From Escherichia phage SUSP2, in sequence record KT454806: 64,000 bases of DNA, one strand, 5' to 3'. Below are positions 1,641 through 34,730 of this stretch, piece by piece; within the stretch, counting starts at the first letter, position 1, and the number at the start of each line of letters is the position of its first letter. The notes under the pieces were generated by a model. The model was not told the origin of the DNA. It ran no database searches and saw nothing but the letters and a program-made list of their open reading frames with translations. Made by a program: the position numbers and the translations under genes.

Positions 1641-3107
1641 ATGGCAGAAATTACAGAAACACAAGAAAGCCTACCTCCATTCAGAATGGGTGAGGTTGGG
1701 AGCCTTGGTTTAAAGGTTCGTGGTGGAAGAATCTACGAAGAACCTAGACAAGCTTTAAGGTTCCCAGAAAGTATTAAGACTTTCCAACTGATGATGCGTG
1801 ACCCTGCTGTAGCAGCATCTGTAAACATTATTAAGATGTTTGTTAGAAAAGTCAACTGGAGATTTGTTCCTCCGAAGGGAAAAGAACAAGACCCTAAGAT
1901 GATTGAACGAGCAGACTTCTTTAACTCTCTGATGGATGACATGGAGCATGATTGGGCTGACTTTATTAACTCTGTAATGTCATTCTGTACTTACGGATTC
2001 TGCGTGAATGAGAAAGTTTACAAGAAGCGTCAGGGTAATAAAGGGAAATACCCTTCAAGATACAATGATGGTTTAATTGGTTGGGCTAAACTCCCTATCA
2101 GAAACCAGTCAACTCTTGATAAATGGTATTTTGATTCAGACTATCGAAAAGTAACAGGTGTTAGACAGAATCTGAGAAACGTTTCACACATTGCTGGAGC
2201 TATTAATCTGGCTGAACAGCCACTAACAAGAAAGCTTCCAAGAAGTAAATTCTTGCTGTTCAAATATGATGATGAATACGGTAACCCAGAAGGTCGTTCA
2301 CCATTACTCAATGCTTATGTACCTTGGAAATATAAAGTCCAAATTGAAGAGTATGAAGCAGTTGGTGTTTCCAGAGACTTAGTAGGTATGCCGAAGATTG
2401 GTTTGCCACCTGATTATCTGGATGAGAATGCTGAACCTGAAAAGAAAGCTTTCGTAGAATACTGCAAATCTGTAGTTAATGATATGATTGCAAATGACCG
2501 AGCAGGTTTAATCTGGCCTAGATTTATCGACCCAGAAACTAAAGAGGATATCTTTGAGTTCTCATTAGTATCTAGACAGGGTGCAAAGGCTTACGATACC
2601 GGAGCTATTATTGACCGCTATTCTAAGCAGATTATGATGGCATTTATGTCAGACGTTCTTGCAATGGGTCAGTCAAAATATGGTTCATTCTCTTTAGCAG
2701 ATTCTAAGACAAGTTTACTTGCAATGTCTGTAGACATTCTTCTGAAACAAATCAGAAACGTAATTAACCGTGACCTAGTAGCACAGACTTACGCTCTGAA
2801 TATGTGGGATGATGAAGAACACGTTCAAATCGTTTATGACGACATTGAAACTCCAGACCTTGAAGCTATCGGTGCTTATATTCAGAAGACCGTTGCAGTT
2901 GGTGCTATGGAAGTTGATAAGGAACTGTCTAACAAGCTTAGAGAGCACATTGGCTTACCTCCTGCTGATGAGTCTCAACCTGTGTCTGAAGAATTGTCTC
3001 CGAACACGCAAAGTCGTTCAGGTGATGGTTATAAGACTGCCGGAGAGGGAACTGCGAAGACCCCTTCAGCAAAAGACCCAAGTACAGCGAATAAGGCAAA
3101 TAAATAA
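1641..3107 (+). CDS. Portal protein
   Basis: About 490-aa ORF directly after terL, start ATG at 1641 with AGGTGAG RBS; position and size typical of portal. Confidence 0.65.
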   Translation: MAEITETQESLPPFRMGEVGSLGLKVRGGRIYEEPRQALRFPESIKTFQLMMRDPAVAASVNIIKMFVRKVNWRFVPPKGKEQDPKMIERADFFNSLMDDMEHDWADFINSVMSFCTYGFCVNEKVYKKRQGNKGKYPSRYNDGLIGWAKLPIRNQSTLDKWYFDSDYRKVTGVRQNLRNVSHIAGAINLAEQPLTRKLPRSKFLLFKYDDEYGNPEGRSPLLNAYVPWKYKVQIEEYEAVGVSRDLVGMPKIGLPPDYLDENAEPEKKAFVEYCKSVVNDMIANDRAGLIWPRFIDPETKEDIFEFSLVSRQGAKAYDTGAIIDRYSKQIMMAFMSDVLAMGQSKYGSFSLADSKTSLLAMSVDILLKQIRNVINRDLVAQTYALNMWDDEEHVQIVYDDIETPDLEAIGAYIQKTVAVGAMEVDKELSNKLREHIGLPPADESQPVSEELSPNTQSRSGDGYKTAGEGTAKTPSAKDPSTANKANK

Positions 3108-3607
3108 TGGCTGAAGTTATCTCTATTTCAAATGCTACACGAGTGCATTCGTATAGAGGTGTTCTGGTTATTACTGATACGTTATCTGTAGAGGCTGGCT
3201 CAAGGGTCAGCCTTTCAGGTTATGTAAGTGATGGTGGAACCTCTAACGTTTTCACTATTTGCAGGTTACTTGATGCTCCAATGAACGGAAATTCGTTTAT
3301 TTCAAACAATTGTAGCGAAATTGTTAAAATTCCATTTGACAGTTCATGCCTTTTGGGTGTAAAGTTATATAACTGTGAGAATAAACGTATAAACGTTAAT
3401 AGCGTTGAAGCTGCGTTCATTACCATTGACACAGCATTTCAATCCCCAATGACAGTAAATAAAGAGTCTAACAGACTTGAGTACATTTTTTCACAAAATG
3501 ATTACAAAGTACTTGTCAAAGGTAAAGTATATGATATGATTGTAAATGTGGTGGATGAATCTGGTAACCATTCAACAGTCCTTAAACAGAAAGTAAGGTT
3601 CAATTAA
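3107..3607 (+). CDS. Hypothetical protein, Cys-rich
   Basis: ORF start overlaps portal stop (ATGG); no recognisable motif. Confidence 0.4.
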   Translation: MAEVISISNATRVHSYRGVLVITDTLSVEAGSRVSLSGYVSDGGTSNVFTICRLLDAPMNGNSFISNNCSEIVKIPFDSSCLLGVKLYNCENKRINVNSVEAAFITIDTAFQSPMTVNKESNRLEYIFSQNDYKVLVKGKVYDMIVNVVDESGNHSTVLKQKVRFN

Positions 3608-3939
3608 TGGGAACATTAACTATTGATGGTAAGAATAAAATCCTCGCCACGCTAACCCCAACGACTATTGTTTTACACAATGTAGACCCAACGGCAGACC
3701 CTACAGCAAATAAGGTTACTCAGCCAGTGGCTATTTATTTCTCTGAACCGAATAACGGCTTAATTGCCTCAGAAGATACAGTTAACATTACTGTACCAGC
3801 TTCTGCAACGGTCTCACACTATAGCCTATGGGATGCCAACGATAAATGCGTGGCAACAGGTGCTCTTAGCAGCCCTCAATTCTTTGCTGAAGAAGGTATC
3901 TATGTTATCGCTTCAGTATCGGTGGATTTAAACAAATAG
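3607..3939 (+). CDS. Hypothetical protein
   Basis: ORF start overlaps upstream stop (TTAATGG); no recognisable motif. Confidence 0.4.
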   Translation: MGTLTIDGKNKILATLTPTTIVLHNVDPTADPTANKVTQPVAIYFSEPNNGLIASEDTVNITVPASATVSHYSLWDANDKCVATGALSSPQFFAEEGIYVIASVSVDLNK

Positions 3940-27878: not shown

Positions 27879-28319
27879 TTAGAAAGGTTTTCTACGTTGC
27901 TTGTTAATGTTAGCTTTCATAGCGGCTAAATGGTTTTGCTGTTCAATCAATCGTGAACGTTCTTGATGACTAAGTGCCATAGTGTTCACATTCTCAATTG
28001 CTTGAGTCGCTTGCTTTAAGGCGCGACCAATCTTACCAGACATTTTACGTTTTGCAATAGTTGCTTGATGTTTTGGTTCAACTACACGATAACCCACACC
28101 CATTGAAGCAACCAGATAAATCTTTTCTTCTTTAAGAAGCTTTTCGATAAACTTCTCAAGTCGGTTTAATCGTGTCAGAGAATAAGCCTTCATCTCATCT
28201 TCGTACTTAACAATATCACCCTGATAAGTTGGCTTCACAATACCTAAGAAGGTATCCATTTCAGAGTGTGATACAGTATCACCGTAACTAAACTTTGCTG
28301 CTAATGCTTTTGTATTCAT
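27879..28319 (-). CDS. Hypothetical protein, basic C-terminus (second gene of repeat-flanked operon)
   Basis: 146-aa ORF, stop 1 nt after upstream gene start region; no recognisable motif. Confidence 0.5.
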   Translation of the reverse strand: MNTKALAAKFSYGDTVSHSEMDTFLGIVKPTYQGDIVKYEDEMKAYSLTRLNRLEKFIEKLLKEEKIYLVASMGVGYRVVEPKHQATIAKRKMSGKIGRALKQATQAIENVNTMALSHQERSRLIEQQNHLAAMKANINKQRRKPF

Positions 28320-28321
28320 AA

Positions 28322-28927
<606 letters not shown>

Positions 28928-29021
28928 TTAGTTGATTGTTAAGTTGTTTGTAAAGAACCCTCAACAGAAGACTCTTTAGAAACTTGGTAGATTTTTAACG
29001 TGGCTACTACCATCCACCCAT

Positions 29022-29081
29022 ACCTTACCAAACCCTACCAGACCGTACCATGCCCAACCCTACTACACCAGACCTTACCTC
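29022..29081 (+). repeat. Phased pentamer array B1, 12 ACCNN units
   Basis: ACC (two degenerate: GCC, ACT) at 29022+5k for k=0..11; preceded by leader GGCTACTACCATCCACCC. Confidence 0.8.
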
Positions 29082-29118
29082 ATTAAAAGACCCTCTTAAA
29101 GACCTTTTAAAAAGGTAA

Positions 29119-29142
29119 GTCTCATTTTCATGTAGCTGAGAC
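29119..29142 (-). other. Internal hairpin in operon leader (possible attenuator)
   Basis: On - strand: GTCTCA-12 nt-TGAGAC followed 5 nt later by TTTTT. Confidence 0.35.
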
Positions 29143-29153
29143 TAACTACCCAT

Positions 29154-29210
29154 ACCAAACCTTACAATACCTAGCCTTACCACACCGAACCAAACCACAC
29201 CCAACCGAAC
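29154..29210 (+). repeat. Phased pentamer array B2, 12 ACCNN units
   Basis: ACC-like trinucleotide at 29154+5k; preceded by leader TGTAGCTGAGACTAACTACCC. Confidence 0.8.
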
Positions 29211-29248
29211 ATCACTTAAAAACCCTTTTCAAAGACCCTTAAGTGATG
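29210..29248 (+). other. Conserved hairpin motif H1, second copy
   Basis: CATCACTTAA-19 nt-TTAAGTGATG; differs from 27696-27734 copy at one loop position. Confidence 0.7.
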
Positions 29249-29278
29249 CTGGTGAGTACCCGTTGGTTTATGCTGCTC

Positions 29279-29306
29279 AGTATACTCACCAAATTTTCTA
29301 TGTCAA
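29279..29306 (-). promoter_or_regulatory. Sigma70-like promoter (TTGACA-N16-TATACT) driving the repeat-containing leader and two-gene operon
   Basis: -35 TTGACA = reverse complement of 29301-29306, -10 TATACT = reverse complement of 29279-29284. Confidence 0.55.
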
Positions 29307-29491
29307 CAATTTTCTAATAAAGTTTTATAAAGATTTTGCTTAACGACCCGCCTCACATGCCTATGCTCTTTCTTAATAAAGAGTGACCTCTTCTTGACAG
29401 AGCGCCTATTCTTGTAGGTATTACTAGGATACTTATCATGAACCGGACAACAACTACCCGGATTTGTAAACTTGATAATCTCTCTTTTCAC
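29303..29491 (-). CDS. Small highly basic protein
   Basis: 62-aa Lys/Arg-rich ORF; start overlaps ligase stop (coupling). Confidence 0.4.
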   Translation of the reverse strand: MKREIIKFTNPGSCCPVHDKYPSNTYKNRRSVKKRSLFIKKEHRHVRRVVKQNLYKTLLENC

Positions 29492-30615
29492 TATTCATAA
29501 TCCCTAATAACGAGACCAACAGGGAACTGTAAAGACCCCTTACGAGTCATCTTCTGGAACTGAACCGTCAAAGGTTTCCCGATAAACTCTTCAGGATGTT
29601 CAGCAAGATACTGTTTCTTTTCATGGGTAGTTTTCCATGAAACATCTACAAAGACGTTAGGAAGAGTCTCTACAACGAACTTACCATGACCACGTTTATC
29701 AGTCTTCACACCAGTTACTTTAAATTCTTCCGTGTGCATCTTCTTATGCTTAATCAGGAAGTAAGAACGGTGACCACACTCATAGAAAGATTCTGCTGAG
29801 ATGGAACGGTACATTGCCCCTTCAAACTTCAGCTTAACCCAATTGTCATGGGCTTTGTCGAACTCTTCCCAAGAGTTAACACGGATAGTTTGCACAGGTA
29901 CAACCCTACAAGCATCACCGAGTTCAACAATTGGAGAGTTATCAATGATTTCACGGCGCTCAGGCCAAGTTTTAGTTTTGTCACAGATATCATACCAGTA
30001 GAATTTAAGTAGGTGACGGTCTGGATTGTCAGCATTCTTAATCATAGACACGATATCTTCTAAATCCCAACCATGAGCATAGATTTCACCATCAAAATCT
30101 TGAACTTGTGGGTGGCATTTAAGCATCAGAAGCAAGTCTGGAATTAACTCTTCAGGTACGTTGTACACAGTATTTTCACGGGAGTAAGCTGTGAAGTTCA
30201 CTGAGTCAGCATCTCTTGATATACGGCAACGAACACCATCAAGCTTCGGTTGAGCATCAGCAGGGAACTTCAAATACTTGGCATGACTGACCTTTGCAGC
30301 ATCTTGTGCAAGTTGTACACCAACCTTCTCAGTGTTCTCTGCTTCAGATTTTGTGTAAGCATAACCTTTACGGTCAACCTGTTTCTTGTACTTAGCAGCA
30401 ACTTCAAAGAGAGCTTGCTGTTCAGCATTACGCTCATTCTTTTTACCGATGTTTTTCGGTTCTGCTGTGTACTCTTCAAACATCATCTTGCCATTTTCTT
30501 TGCCATACGTGGTAACAACTTTGTCACCTACAGCGACACATGACCAGACATTAAAAGAGCCATCTTTATTTTGTTTGTACAGAATTGTCATCATCAATCT
30601 CCAGAATGATACCAA
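29491..30615 (-). CDS. ATP-dependent DNA ligase
   Basis: Adenylation motif I KLDGVR; size about 374 aa like T7-type ligases. Confidence 0.75.
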   Translation of the reverse strand: MVSFWRLMMTILYKQNKDGSFNVWSCVAVGDKVVTTYGKENGKMMFEEYTAEPKNIGKKNERNAEQQALFEVAAKYKKQVDRKGYAYTKSEAENTEKVGVQLAQDAAKVSHAKYLKFPADAQPKLDGVRCRISRDADSVNFTAYSRENTVYNVPEELIPDLLLMLKCHPQVQDFDGEIYAHGWDLEDIVSMIKNADNPDRHLLKFYWYDICDKTKTWPERREIIDNSPIVELGDACRVVPVQTIRVNSWEEFDKAHDNWVKLKFEGAMYRSISAESFYECGHRSYFLIKHKKMHTEEFKVTGVKTDKRGHGKFVVETLPNVFVDVSWKTTHEKKQYLAEHPEEFIGKPLTVQFQKMTRKGSLQFPVGLVIRDYE

Positions 30616-30785
30616 GTGTCACAAGAGTTACACGCGAAGAGTTTTAAATCCTCCTTGTTTGGTTTATGAAAACAATTTGCCCCACAACGGCAATGGAATG
30701 CCTTACCACCAACTGTCAAGATAAAAGACTCAACCTCTCCATCAGGTGTTCTTACAGCATTCTTAAATTTGTCTTCTTTACTCAT
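30594..30785 (-). CDS. Small zinc-finger protein
   Basis: CRCGANC...CNSC Cys cluster. Confidence 0.4.
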   Translation of the reverse strand: MSKEDKFKNAVRTPDGEVESFILTVGGKAFHCRCGANCFHKPNKEDLKLFACNSCDTWYHSGD

Positions 30786-30988
30786 TTTCTCTTCCCACCA
30801 ATTTCTACATCAATAACCTGAACATCACCAGCAACATCAAACTTGTGAATGATGTTCTCTACAGTGTAAGTCCAACCTTCAATGCGAACCCATTCACCTT
30901 CTCGTGGTACTATTGGATTACGTTGAGCTACCGTTGTAGTAGAGTGAACAACATCATAACGGTATACATAGTTTACTAAAACTTGCAT
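30782..30988 (-). CDS. Hypothetical protein
   Basis: 68-aa coupled ORF. Confidence 0.35.
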   Translation of the reverse strand: MQVLVNYVYRYDVVHSTTTVAQRNPIVPREGEWVRIEGWTYTVENIIHKFDVAGDVQVIDVEIGGKRK

Positions 30989-30997
30989 AGTGTTTCC

Positions 30998-31225
30998 TTA
31001 AAAGAATAAGTCAGAGGCTTTTGGAGAATCTTGCACAATACTCCACCCTGATTTCTGCCAATCAAGACCACGATACCATGAAGTCATCGGGTAACCCATT
31101 TCACAGACAATGGTTCCATCTTTCATTTCAAAGAACTCATCAGATGTGAAGTTCTCATTACGTACTTTCTTACCTTGCTTCATTGCTTCAACAGCTTCTT
31201 CAAAAGTCATTTTTGGTTTCTCCAA
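30998..31225 (-). CDS. Hypothetical protein
   Basis: 75-aa ORF. Confidence 0.35.
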   Translation of the reverse strand: MEKPKMTFEEAVEAMKQGKKVRNENFTSDEFFEMKDGTIVCEMGYPMTSWYRGLDWQKSGWSIVQDSPKASDLFF

Positions 31226-31228
31226 TAC

Positions 31229-31441
31229 TTAAAAGTTAATGTCGATGCGTTCACCCTTAAGGACTCCAGTGCGGTCTCTTGCAATCTTACCGTCAACAAT
31301 AAGGATATGTGCAGCCCTTAAAGAGTCACGATTAAAACCTTTTACGAACTTACTAGGCATCACTACAATGAGCATCTCCTGAATCAACTCTGGAGTGTAG
31401 CAGTTGTCGTGAAGTTGTTGGATAACGTCTGAAAGTGTCAT
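31229..31441 (-). CDS. Hypothetical protein
   Basis: 70-aa ORF. Confidence 0.35.
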   Translation of the reverse strand: MTLSDVIQQLHDNCYTPELIQEMLIVVMPSKFVKGFNRDSLRAAHILIVDGKIARDRTGVLKGERIDINF

Positions 31442-31492
31442 AAACCCTCCTATACAAGATACAGTATAAGGTACTCTTCCATGAGCACCTTG

Positions 31493-32020
31493 TCAACTTA
31501 GTTTTGCAAACTCTCCGTGAAGTTTCATAGAAGCTTCACAGTAAGCTTTATGGGCTTCTTCAGGGGTGTCATAGTAGCCTAATGACATCTTTTTACCTTT
31601 ATAGCTTATTTGCGCAACCCACCTACCAGACTTCTTCTTCAGGCTTACACCCTTATAGCCTGATTTATTGGTGGATAGTTTGCTTTTATTCCAAGCACTT
31701 TGGCAGTCGTCTGCTTCTCTTAAGTTTACAATCCTGTTATCAAGGGAGTCCCCATTACTATGGTCAATAACACCTTTAGGTAACCTACCATACACGTACA
31801 GCCATGCGAGTCTGTGCGCTTTATGTGCTTTCTTGTCAAAATAGATAGTAATCTGCTTATGACCAGTTGAGTCAATCTGGAGGCTTCCCGCTACCTGTCC
31901 TGCGTACTGGCTATTAAAAACTTTAACAGCCTTTGAGTCGCCCTCTCTACGAAGCCAAGTAAAGACCCCTATTTCGGGGTCATAGTGTAGTAGTTCCTTT
32001 AAACGTTCTTGTGTAATCAT
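31493..32020 (-). CDS. HNH homing endonuclease with AP2 DNA-binding domain
   Basis: HNH motif HSNGDSLDNRIVNLR; AP2-like GYKGVS...GRWVAQI...LGYYDTPEEAHKAY; immediately downstream of DNA polymerase gene. Confidence 0.7.
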   Translation of the reverse strand: MITQERLKELLHYDPEIGVFTWLRREGDSKAVKVFNSQYAGQVAGSLQIDSTGHKQITIYFDKKAHKAHRLAWLYVYGRLPKGVIDHSNGDSLDNRIVNLREADDCQSAWNKSKLSTNKSGYKGVSLKKKSGRWVAQISYKGKKMSLGYYDTPEEAHKAYCEASMKLHGEFAKLS

Positions 32021-32030
32021 TTTGTCACCA

Positions 32031-34730
32031 TTAATGCACTTCCAACCACGATTTACCGACCTTACCAGTACCAGTTACCAGTGTTTTACTCTTTAGTCCT
32101 AAGTTCTTAGAGGCTTGCCCGTAATACCAATCAGTGACAGCCTTCACCTCTGCCGTCATACTTTCTGGACATTCCCAACTTGTCTCATCGTGATAGGAGC
32201 ACAATAAACGAGCACCTATAGCTGGTTTACGACCGTTCAACTTCATCAAACCTTCGTCAATCATACGACGGCAAGCAAGGTTAATTGCCTCGTTCTGAAT
32301 CTGGCTTTCCGAACCCATCAGTAAGTAGTTCAATAGTTTGTGTGGAGATTTACACCACAACCATGCTCCAGCCACCTTGACAAAACCACCTTTAGAGATT
32401 GCAGCAGTCTTACCAAATACTTCTTCAAGTGCTTTCTTAGTTGCTTTAAAGTCAGCTTCCAAGTTGTCTAACAGTTTCTTAATCTTCGGCAAACGCACAA
32501 AGTAAGTCTGTTTAGTTAATGCACCTTCCTGAGTAGTCGCAGCTTTAATCGTCTTAGCAAACTTCTCATCACCAGCACCGAACAGTAACGCATAGATACC
32601 ATTCTTAGCTTTCTTACGACCTTTGCTAATTTCGTGAAGAAGATTTTCATCCTGAGTCATACGACAAGTCAAGATATCTTGTTCTTCATTCAAGCTGAAG
32701 TAGATACTGTTCAGTGTATGTGCATCAGTACCTGAGTAAACTACGTACAAGTCATTTTCAGAGTCGTAATGCAGATACTTATCAACTTCTGGATTCAGGT
32801 ATTCGTCAAAGTGTTTGCAGTAGTATCTGCCATCTTCCTGACGGATAAACTCAATCTCTTCTTTACCCTGAGTTACTGCTTTGGTGAACTCTTTGTCACC
32901 CATAAAGTTGCACAGTAAAACAAGTTGCGCTGAATTCATGTCAACGGAGACTACGTTTGTACCTTCTTCACAAATCCAGACTGCCCTCATTGGTTCACCG
33001 TAAACAGCAGCCCCAGAAGGTACGTTCACGATTCCGTATTGTGTCATACGTCCAGTTGAAGTGCCAAACACCATTGCACCAGCACTCAAACGACCATCTG
33101 GACGAATCTGGTTTAACCAACCTTTTTCATCATCCTTTGAGTTCTCGATAGTTCTGCGTCGGTGCATCAAAGTATAGTACTTCGCAATCTTCTGTCCAAG
33201 TTCACCTTCAATCGTATCGTAAGATGATTCAGTCAGTTTCGGTGAAGTCCGAATCAAGCAAGGTTCAAGCAAATCTGTGTACTTCTTAACAGACCAGTTG
33301 TGTTCGATGTACTGTACACCTTCATGCTCAACATAGTTCAATCCGCAACGGTCTACCATCTCTTGCCATTTCGGATGTTTACGAATCATCTTCTTGTTGT
33401 CTTTGAAGCGACAAACCTTCACCGGACGACCATCAGAATCTTTCTTGTAGTTCCAGTCATCAGGAATCCAGCCAAGAGTTTTCAGATAATCCTTCACAAC
33501 CGCAACCTGAGTCATACGCGACACTTCGAACTCAATCGGTGTATAAGGTGCATCAATCAAACCTGTGTAACGACTTGACTCAAGTTCAAAGTGATTTACT
33601 ACGTGGTTGTTGTAGTACTTCACAGTCTTCACAGTCTTAACTGGTTTCCAGTCTTTGCACTTCTTATCAATCGCAGCATTCAACTCATTACAAACTGCAC
33701 GAGCATCTTTCATTGCAACGAAACCTTCTTTGTACTCTTCTCCAGTAACCGTGTTAGTCGGAGTGTAGCAGTTACGCTTCTCAATGTTGAAAATCTTGGT
33801 AGTCGGTTTACCAAAAGGCTTGATAGCGTAAGTCTGCATCTCACCATTGCGAACCTGCTGACGGAACTTAGTTTTTGGATACTTAGTGATACGCTTCAAA
33901 CCATCTGCTTCACCAAATGTCTCAACATACTCGTTCCAAGCCCTTGCAAACTCTTCACCAGTGACTTTGCCTTTCGTCTTAATAGTTGGTGGCAGATGAG
34001 GCTCAACTTCAGCAGCTAATTCATCAGTCAGTCTGTCAAGTTCTTTGACATGGAACTGCATAAGTTCAATATCAGCTTTCCAACCGTTAATAGCTTGCTG
34101 ACTCATCCAGAAAGATGTTTCTTTAGCTCGCATGTAGGTTTCGTAAGTGTCTACACCACACTTCTTCAGTTTCAGGTATTCATTATCAAGAGCACGTTTA
34201 GCTTTGGCGTTGATTCGAATATCCTCAACAACACGGTTCAGAATGTCAGCATTCCAGACACCCCACTCTTCAATTTCTGGTTTACGAACACCAACACGAG
34301 CACCCCATGCAGCCAAACCATGAGCACCTTTGTAACCTTTCGGTGTAGGTCTATCCATCCACTGAACACGAGACTGGATAAGAGAATCCTGAAAGAAGTC
34401 TCCCCAAGGTTTACACTTCGGATTGTCAAAGTTCCATAAGTCCGGTGCAATGTGATTGAACACCCACCAGTCATAGCCAAGACCGTTATGAATGCAGAGA
34501 CGTTTTGCCTTAAGAGCAAACTCCACACCTTCACGAAGACCACCTTTGATGTACTTAGTACACTTGTGACCAAGGATAGGTTCATCGGTGAAGACCCACA
34601 CAGCAGGTTCGTCACTGTCATCTTTGTAATCTGCAAATGCCATTACGTGTGCTTTTGTGAACTCAAGGAGTAACCCATCAGTTTCGGTATCACCTACCAA
34701 GTGCAAGTTTTCAAAATCTACGTTTTCCAT
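32031..34730 (-). CDS. DNA polymerase, family A, with 3'-5' exonuclease domain
   Basis: Exo I motif VGDTETDGL; Pol A motif B-like KKAKNGIYALLFGAG; motif C YHDE. Confidence 0.8.
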   Translation of the reverse strand: MENVDFENLHLVGDTETDGLLLEFTKAHVMAFADYKDDSDEPAVWVFTDEPILGHKCTKYIKGGLREGVEFALKAKRLCIHNGLGYDWWVFNHIAPDLWNFDNPKCKPWGDFFQDSLIQSRVQWMDRPTPKGYKGAHGLAAWGARVGVRKPEIEEWGVWNADILNRVVEDIRINAKAKRALDNEYLKLKKCGVDTYETYMRAKETSFWMSQQAINGWKADIELMQFHVKELDRLTDELAAEVEPHLPPTIKTKGKVTGEEFARAWNEYVETFGEADGLKRITKYPKTKFRQQVRNGEMQTYAIKPFGKPTTKIFNIEKRNCYTPTNTVTGEEYKEGFVAMKDARAVCNELNAAIDKKCKDWKPVKTVKTVKYYNNHVVNHFELESSRYTGLIDAPYTPIEFEVSRMTQVAVVKDYLKTLGWIPDDWNYKKDSDGRPVKVCRFKDNKKMIRKHPKWQEMVDRCGLNYVEHEGVQYIEHNWSVKKYTDLLEPCLIRTSPKLTESSYDTIEGELGQKIAKYYTLMHRRRTIENSKDDEKGWLNQIRPDGRLSAGAMVFGTSTGRMTQYGIVNVPSGAAVYGEPMRAVWICEEGTNVVSVDMNSAQLVLLCNFMGDKEFTKAVTQGKEEIEFIRQEDGRYYCKHFDEYLNPEVDKYLHYDSENDLYVVYSGTDAHTLNSIYFSLNEEQDILTCRMTQDENLLHEISKGRKKAKNGIYALLFGAGDEKFAKTIKAATTQEGALTKQTYFVRLPKIKKLLDNLEADFKATKKALEEVFGKTAAISKGGFVKVAGAWLWCKSPHKLLNYLLMGSESQIQNEAINLACRRMIDEGLMKLNGRKPAIGARLLCSYHDETSWECPESMTAEVKAVTDWYYGQASKNLGLKSKTLVTGTGKVGKSWLEVH

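Follow-up and report, generated by a model that had tools for sequence, protein, structure and literature searches.

The gene immediately following the DNA polymerase gene (pol) of Escherichia phage SUSP2 is, with a probability that we put at about 85%, a free-standing homing endonuclease gene (HEG). Its product joins an I-HmuI-like HNH_3 N-terminus to an AP2 C-terminus and would home by the mechanism proposed below. The reading is carried by the domain architecture of the protein, its Asp-His/Asn core, the purifying selection on it, the polymorphism of its insertion site, and a bounded recombinant patch centred on the HEG. The analysis covered a stretch of 64,000 nt of SUSP2 DNA (sequence record KT454806), hereafter the window, in which positions are counted from the first letter.

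Position and domain architecture of the HEG

SUSP2 is a Felix-O1-like coliphage of the genus Suspvirus (Ounavirinae), and its nearest relative is phiSUSP1 of the same genus, with 95.6% identity over the interval between pol and the ligase gene. In the window, pol encodes a family-A DNA polymerase of 899 aa (32031..34730, minus strand; Pfam DNA_pol_A); it is uninterrupted and ends with a TAA stop codon at 32031-32033. The HEG (31493..32020, 175 aa) starts with an ATG at 32018-32020 and ends with a TGA at 31493-31495. An earlier note on this DNA, made from the letters alone, had described the ORF at 31493-32020 and placed it immediately after pol, 10 nt from the stop codon. The ORF and the spacing, exactly 10 nt from the pol TAA to the HEG ATG, were both confirmed; the strand needs correcting, as the gene lies on the minus strand. 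The spacer, TGGTGACAAA (32021..32030, minus strand), holds a Shine-Dalgarno-like GGTGA element. The same note had spoken of a polymerase-ligase interval, which is accurate in part: the HEG adjoins pol, but the ligase gene (29491..30615, Pfam ATP-dependent ligase domains) is not adjacent, since four small ORFs belonging to PHROGs 4230, 3474, 4427, and 5768 intervene. The PHROG 4230 gene (31229..31441, minus strand, 70 aa) lies inside the co-converted downstream flank described below. A tblastn search found no paralogue of the HEG in the window (nothing below E = 3), and neither Rfam families nor tRNA genes were found in the window.

The combination of an HNH motif with an AP2-type domain in one ORF, which had been proposed from the sequence, was borne out by Pfam profiles that both exceeded their curated cut-offs. 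The HNH_3 nuclease core (residues 67-103; 31712..31822, minus strand) scored 52.9 bits against a cut-off of 24.8 (E = 2.8e-14), and the AP2 DNA-binding domain (residues 120-169; 31514..31663, minus strand) scored 51.2 bits against 33.3 (E = 1.6e-13). The protein also matched PHROG 99, "HNH endonuclease" (E = 1.6e-71). The Pfam and PHROG scores are far above chance. Homologues were present in 3560 phage records (E ≤ 1e-5), and the protein is 100% identical to ALH47075.1 / YP_009211081 of phiSUSP1 (KT454805), which is annotated as "putative homing endonuclease". The phiSUSP1 gene occupies the same place, 10 nt past the polymerase gene, and nothing differs at the protein level, whereas the surrounding polymerase and ligase genes of the two phages differ by 3-40% in patches.

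The AP2 domain has a topology of three strands plus a helix, and it matched the solved structures of the plant AP2/ERF proteins WRI1, TEM1, ERF096, and AtERF1. In a single-sequence AlphaFold model the mean pLDDT was 45.2; residues 1-120 were below 50, and only the AP2 part reached 60-77.

A GC hairpin resembling a terminator, GACCCCGAAATAGGGGTC with TTTACTT after it, is located within the 5' end of the ORF (31964-31981, minus strand). This hairpin codes for a conserved DPE(I/T)GV motif, and an extra G at the hairpin in the D1-2 cassette leads to the frameshift of that copy.

Nuclease core and selection

Ten cassette proteins from the same genomic site, 41-95% identical to that of the window, were aligned. 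D86, H87, N95, N99, L100, R101, and N111 were invariant in this alignment, including in lineages down to 41-56% identity. D86, H87, N95, and N99-L100-R101 are located within the HNH_3 core; S108 and N111 are located in the helix just 3' of it (31688-31699). A single-sequence PDB search with the HEG protein returned AP2 proteins only, and a profile was needed to reach I-HmuI: the profile of the cassette proteins matched I-HmuI (1U3E) with an E value of 1.4e-7 and, over its C-terminal half, plant AP2/ERF domains. In the resulting alignment, D86/H87 fall on D74/H75 of I-HmuI and N111 falls on N99. At the position of N96, the window's lineage has Ser108, whereas the other cassette lineages have Asn. 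Asn96 of I-HmuI is reportedly a metal ligand, by the account of Shen et al. 2004. Judged from this substitution, the SUSP2 enzyme could have a weak or altered activity, or none. A demonstration of cleavage, whether biochemical or genetic, was not found in the literature for the HEG protein or its close homologues.

Within the window's cassette lineage, dN/dS was 0.13-0.19 in nine comparisons (dS 0.11 to 1.4). These ratios indicate purifying selection, and a value of approximately 0.15 argues that the protein is maintained. The ORF was intact in every cassette lineage, with the frameshifted copy of D1-2 as the sole exception.

Presence and absence at the insertion site

In Suspvirus EcSzw-2, which has no HEG, the pol stop codon runs directly into a conserved intergenic element. 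This element (31442..31496, minus strand in the window) starts with TTGACAAGGTGC, overlaps the HEG stop codon, and is unique in the window. Alignment of the two genomes identified the insertion as a 529-bp segment (31501..32029) missing from EcSzw-2, the boundary of which is ambiguous by about 5-7 nt at a short direct repeat. The survey of this site covered 38 loci (30 from IMG/VR, seven from GenBank, and the window, with some duplicates among them). An HNH-AP2 cassette was present in 22 loci and the site was empty in 16, all at one insertion point. In 14 of the 16 empty sites, the motif TTGACArGGyGC is located 5-6 nt past the pol stop codon; the remaining two are Erwinia-type loci with a variant of this motif and no gene. 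All 22 occupied loci carry the motif at the cassette end, +481 to +534 from the pol stop codon. The spacer at 32021..32030 repeats, in degenerate form, the one found at empty sites (T.GTGTTGAC.A), and the resemblance extends into the first bases of TTGACA. The cassette therefore has a short direct repeat at its two ends.

The earlier note had suggested comparing relatives for presence or absence of the ORF and had named universal presence with conserved synteny as evidence against its proposal. Such universality was not observed: the gene is absent from EcSzw-2 and from 16 of the 38 loci, and the occupied sites carry six divergent lineages. The window's cassette type was found at full length in 56 of the 305 matching GenBank phage records.

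We also considered whether VpaE1_ev78 is a derivative of VpaE1 that gained the HEG. This was unsupported, as the two differ throughout the region, including in their intron state. In two relatives at a greater distance (loci L025 and L026), whose pol is about 72% identical, an HNH-AP2 gene (1165-1641) lies directly upstream of the polymerase gene and not downstream.

Cassette lineages and their conserved ends

The amino acid identities of the six cassette lineages to the window's protein are 95-100%, ~84%, 73%, 50-54%, 44-46%, and ~45% (the Felix O1 type), and those lineages that were checked for domains all had HNH_3 plus AP2. The 3'-terminal ~60-70 nt of the ORF (31493..31560, minus strand) are 80-97% identical at the DNA level across the six lineages, whereas the cassettes outside this conserved end are only 20-60% identical between lineages. 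The final ~25 residues are common to all lineages, and the first ~75 nt are shared by the window's type and the 50-54% type. We read this as a sign that rival cassettes may recombine through their conserved ends.

The S19cd cassette (L066, about 3083-3634) is a chimera with a body of the window's type (96.6% aa identity) and the junction and N-terminal extension of the 50-54% lineage. The pol 3' end of S19cd is not co-converted.

The cassette 3' end together with the intergenic element was predicted to form a stable fold with three hairpins (z = -3.9). The TTGACA motif of the element was considered as a repeated promoter consensus and rejected, because there was one exact copy and loose matches were not enriched. 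A sigma-70 scan of the window did not call it.

A recombinant patch centred on the HEG

The sequence comparisons indicate that the HEG entered the SUSP2 lineage with about 280 bp of flank on each side. The acquired patch of ~1.09 kb (31226..32310), which comprises the HEG and the co-converted flanks, has breakpoints at 31218|31226 and 32310|32319 and is 91-98% identical to distant Felixounavirus carriers of the HEG. The window was compared with EcSzw-2, a HEG-less phage of the same genus, and with dune, a Felixounavirus with the HEG. Pol without its 3' end (32320-34730) was 96.1% identical to EcSzw-2 and 86.0% to dune, whereas its co-converted last 280 nt (32031..32310, minus strand) were 82.9% identical to EcSzw-2 and 97.5% to dune. 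The HEG, absent in EcSzw-2, was 96.2% identical to that of dune. The PHROG 4230 gene was 90.6% identical to its dune counterpart and could not be aligned with the EcSzw-2 allele. JohannRWettstein and VpaE1_ev78 showed an identity pattern like that of dune.

Sites were counted as informative where the three carriers (dune, JohannRWettstein, and VpaE1_ev78) all differ from EcSzw-2. Carrier-like states were found at 57 of the 62 such sites inside 31226..32310 and at 62 of the 505 outside it (Fisher p = 1.2e-38). The patch extends ~275 and ~281 bp to either side of the insertion point. This near-symmetry is what one expects of resection from a break at or close to the insertion point, although it comes from a single event. 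In addition, phiSUSP1 DNA is 100% identical to the window across 31151-32200, whereas the divergence between the two is 3-7% over most of pol (about 32300-34600). The idea that the gene marks a place of gene conversion between phages thus found support in a sharply bounded patch centred on it. Mosaicism occurs elsewhere too, with ligase patches that carry no HEG, and the patch alone is therefore no proof that an endonuclease began the exchange.

Proposed mechanism and alternative explanations

Co-conversion of flanking markers and presence or absence at one site in collinear relatives were both found at this locus. Together with the divergent cassettes, they support the view that a selfish free-standing homing endonuclease sits beside a replication gene. 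From these data we infer cleavage activity, the position of its target site, and a choice between a nick and a double-strand break, as follows. The HEG would be co-transcribed with pol, and translational coupling is probable. During a mixed infection, the enzyme would nick or cut the allele that lacks the HEG, at or close to the point where the pol stop codon meets the TTGACA motif of the intergenic element. The break would be resected and repaired from the HEG-bearing genome, and the recipient would thereby gain the 529-bp cassette along with flanking DNA of a few hundred bp. A carrier would be safe from its own enzyme because the cassette splits the target. I-HmuI-type enzymes are nickases (PMC3428280), so that nicking and double-strand cutting are equally likely.

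The same locus might instead hold a former homing endonuclease that no longer cuts, with the patch produced by ordinary homologous recombination of co-infecting mosaic phages. Ser108 at the position of I-HmuI Asn96 agrees with such a loss of function, as do the HEG-free recombinant patches nearby in the ligase region. We regard it as improbable, however, because the dN/dS of ~0.15 applies to the whole lineage with the nuclease core included, as expected of a maintained protein, and because the ORFs are intact in all lineages save the D1-2 copy. The patch, moreover, is centred on the cassette with near-equal flanks, and phiSUSP1 shares the HEG and its flanks at 100% identity but departs from the window by 3-7% over most of pol.

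Less probable again is a domesticated regulator, in which the AP2 domain would bind the downstream intergenic element and control the small early genes, the HNH domain being vestigial or used for marker exclusion in phage competition. The overlap of the HEG stop codon with this conserved, structured element and the DNA-level conservation of the last ~60 nt of every cassette are in line with this idea, but the 16 of 38 relatives without the gene here keep the same intergenic element and downstream genes. The protein is therefore dispensable for their expression, and the residues that are invariant are those of the nuclease core. A packaging-associated HNH endonuclease acting with terminase, a role known for some phage HNH proteins (PMC5304195), has a negligible probability. 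The HEG is located in the replication module, between pol and the small early ORFs, rather than beside the terminase, and its protein has a sequence-specific DNA-binding domain of the AP2 type; the closely related viable phages without the HEG effectively refute such a role.

Comparison with known systems

The homing endonuclease proposed here is of a known kind: it is annotated in phiSUSP1, and both the family and the position beside the polymerase gene have been published. HNH-AP2 homing endonucleases, which we take to include proteins of Felix O1 and RB49, have an N-terminal HNH and a C-terminal AP2 domain and are free-standing and phage-borne; the SUSP2 HEG shares all of these features. 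The family was described by Magnani et al. 2004, as cited in PMC10448857. Barth et al. located 29% of AP2-associated HNH genes near DNA polymerase genes, and "HEG islands" with unstable content have been described (PMC10448857). The IPA-HNH subgroup (Barth et al. 2023; PMC10448857) is defined by an HNH domain that has diverged beyond what the Pfam HNH_3 profile recognises. The SUSP2 HEG is not of this subgroup, and its strong HNH_3 match places it in the canonical HNH-AP2 branch.

The nearest solved nuclease domain is that of I-HmuI from SPO1 (1U3E), which has an N-terminal HNH_3 core with the same Asp-His as the SUSP2 protein. I-HmuI, I-HmuII, I-BasI, and I-TslI also act on phage DNA polymerase genes (PMC3428280). 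The genes of this group, however, are encoded inside group I introns and specify another C-terminal DNA-binding region, whereas the SUSP2 HEG is free-standing, has an AP2 domain, and has Ser in place of Asn96. MobE is, like the SUSP2 HEG, a free-standing HNH gene placed between essential genes. It nicks the neighbouring gene, which leads to co-conversion of the flank and can carry along a nearby endonuclease-less intron (PMC2790892). MobE differs in its host gene (nrd rather than pol) and in having no AP2 domain; the SUSP2 case is known from sequence, and the window is intron-less.

F-CphI, at psbA of cyanophage S-PM2, is encoded by a free-standing endonuclease gene whose neighbour contains, in some genomes, a group I intron devoid of an ORF. 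The target of F-CphI is the insertion site of that intron, whereas in the SUSP2 case intron-less genomes do not differ at the corresponding sequence, whether they have the HEG or not. The F-CphI enzyme has an Endo VII motif (PMC6083498). This motif resembles the intron ORF of the SUSP2 relatives and not the HEG protein. The annotators of D1-2 and Felix O1 used the names T7/T3 gene 5.3 and gene 3.8, which denote small HNH genes directly after the DNA polymerase gene in a lytic coliphage. The T7 HNH proteins are shorter than the SUSP2 protein and are not known to have an AP2 domain.

The SUSP2 locus is of value as a clear natural example: genomes are at hand for the HEG-less sister, the distant donors, and the recombinant, and each end of the co-conversion tract can be placed to within about 10 bp. 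The pair of phiSUSP1 and EcSzw-2 offers a ready system in which to measure homing and tract length outside T4. Six HEG-like sequences have been reported in Felix O1 (PMC8300805), and gene conversion driven by HEGs is known to trouble phylogenies of these phages (PMC8594841). The 3'-terminal ~280 nt of pol and the PHROG 4230 gene should be omitted from such phylogenies.

The polymerase intron in relatives

A group I intron interrupts pol in many relatives; that of D1-2 scored 62 bits against an Rfam cut-off of 50. The Rfam boundaries of the D1-2 intron are not the splice sites, and the insertion site was set by alignment to intron-less alleles. In the window this site is unoccupied and falls at 32587..32588 (minus strand) in motif B of the polymerase (KNGIYAL|LFGAGD), 555 nt upstream of the HEG. 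The HEG itself is not intron-encoded: it lies past the pol stop codon, in a window with no Rfam family. Long introns (780-805 nt) contain an Endonuclease_7-type ORF and short ones (268-311 nt) contain no ORF; examples of introns are those at 4374-4641 of L004 and at about 4574-5375 of L003.

Collaborative homing at the pol intron site was considered and, by an indirect test, rejected. Intron-less genomes have one and the same sequence at the insertion site regardless of whether they carry the HEG, and a cassette enzyme that cut it would cut its own genome. The target of the HEG product thus does not appear to be the intron insertion site.

The intron content of the relatives was associated with the state of the post-pol site (loci L004, L033, L066-L072, and further relatives). 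ORF-less introns adjoined a post-pol HNH-AP2 cassette in 13 of 13 phages, involving four cassette lineages, and all seven introns beside an empty site had an Endo VII-type ORF, although the VpaE1 copy is degenerate and split by a frameshift. In five cases an ORF-containing intron was accompanied by a cassette. The association gave a Fisher p of 0.0016, or 0.007 with sequence-verified loci only, both uncorrected for shared ancestry. A strict tie of ORF-less introns to the window's cassette type was rejected: this pairing held in the first 10 intron loci, but Mushroom, Tf, BPSELC-1, and 35FD pair such introns with other lineages. An endonuclease-less intron within co-conversion distance of the HEG is absent from the intron-less window and was seen, 555 nt from the cassette, in the 13 relatives.

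This pattern, which is one of the relatives and not of the window, is consistent with the trans-homing model of MobE (PMC2790892). It is conceivable, though rather doubtful, that the post-pol site is a multi-allelic arena in which rival HNH-AP2 cassettes displace each other by way of their conserved 5' and 3' ends and the resident cassette mobilises the intron in trans, so that the intron's own Endo VII-type endonuclease becomes redundant and is lost. If the link between ORF-less introns and cassettes survives phylogenetic correction, the MobE trans-homing model would come to cover a second group of phages.

Although the window's pol is intron-less, its exon sequence GCGT|TA matches intron-bearing alleles, unlike most intron-less ones. 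This could reflect an intron lost in the past, or co-conversion.

Other variable segments near the HEG

The region 29800-30800, which includes the ligase gene and the next small ORFs, is a second mosaic zone. It is ~96% identical to EcSzw-2 and 56-85% identical to phiSUSP1, a pattern opposite to that of the HEG patch. The ligase gene is annotated as two or three pieces in several relatives, which suggests further insertions. Past the ligase gene, the region 27879-29400 (ORFs 27879-28319 and 28322-28924) matches phiSUSP1 and is ~55-60% identical to EcSzw-2 and PC79-13; it looks like another replaceable module.

The 75-aa ORF of PHROG 3474 (30998-31225, minus strand) gave a borderline Pfam match to Tad2-like (Thoeris anti-defense 2) proteins, at 24.7 bits against a cut-off of 25. 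Lastly, L008, L010, L011, L016, L017, L020, and L032 have an additional segment of ~206 bp with one small ORF, which separates the intergenic element from the PHROG 4230 gene; its presence or absence is independent of the HEG state.
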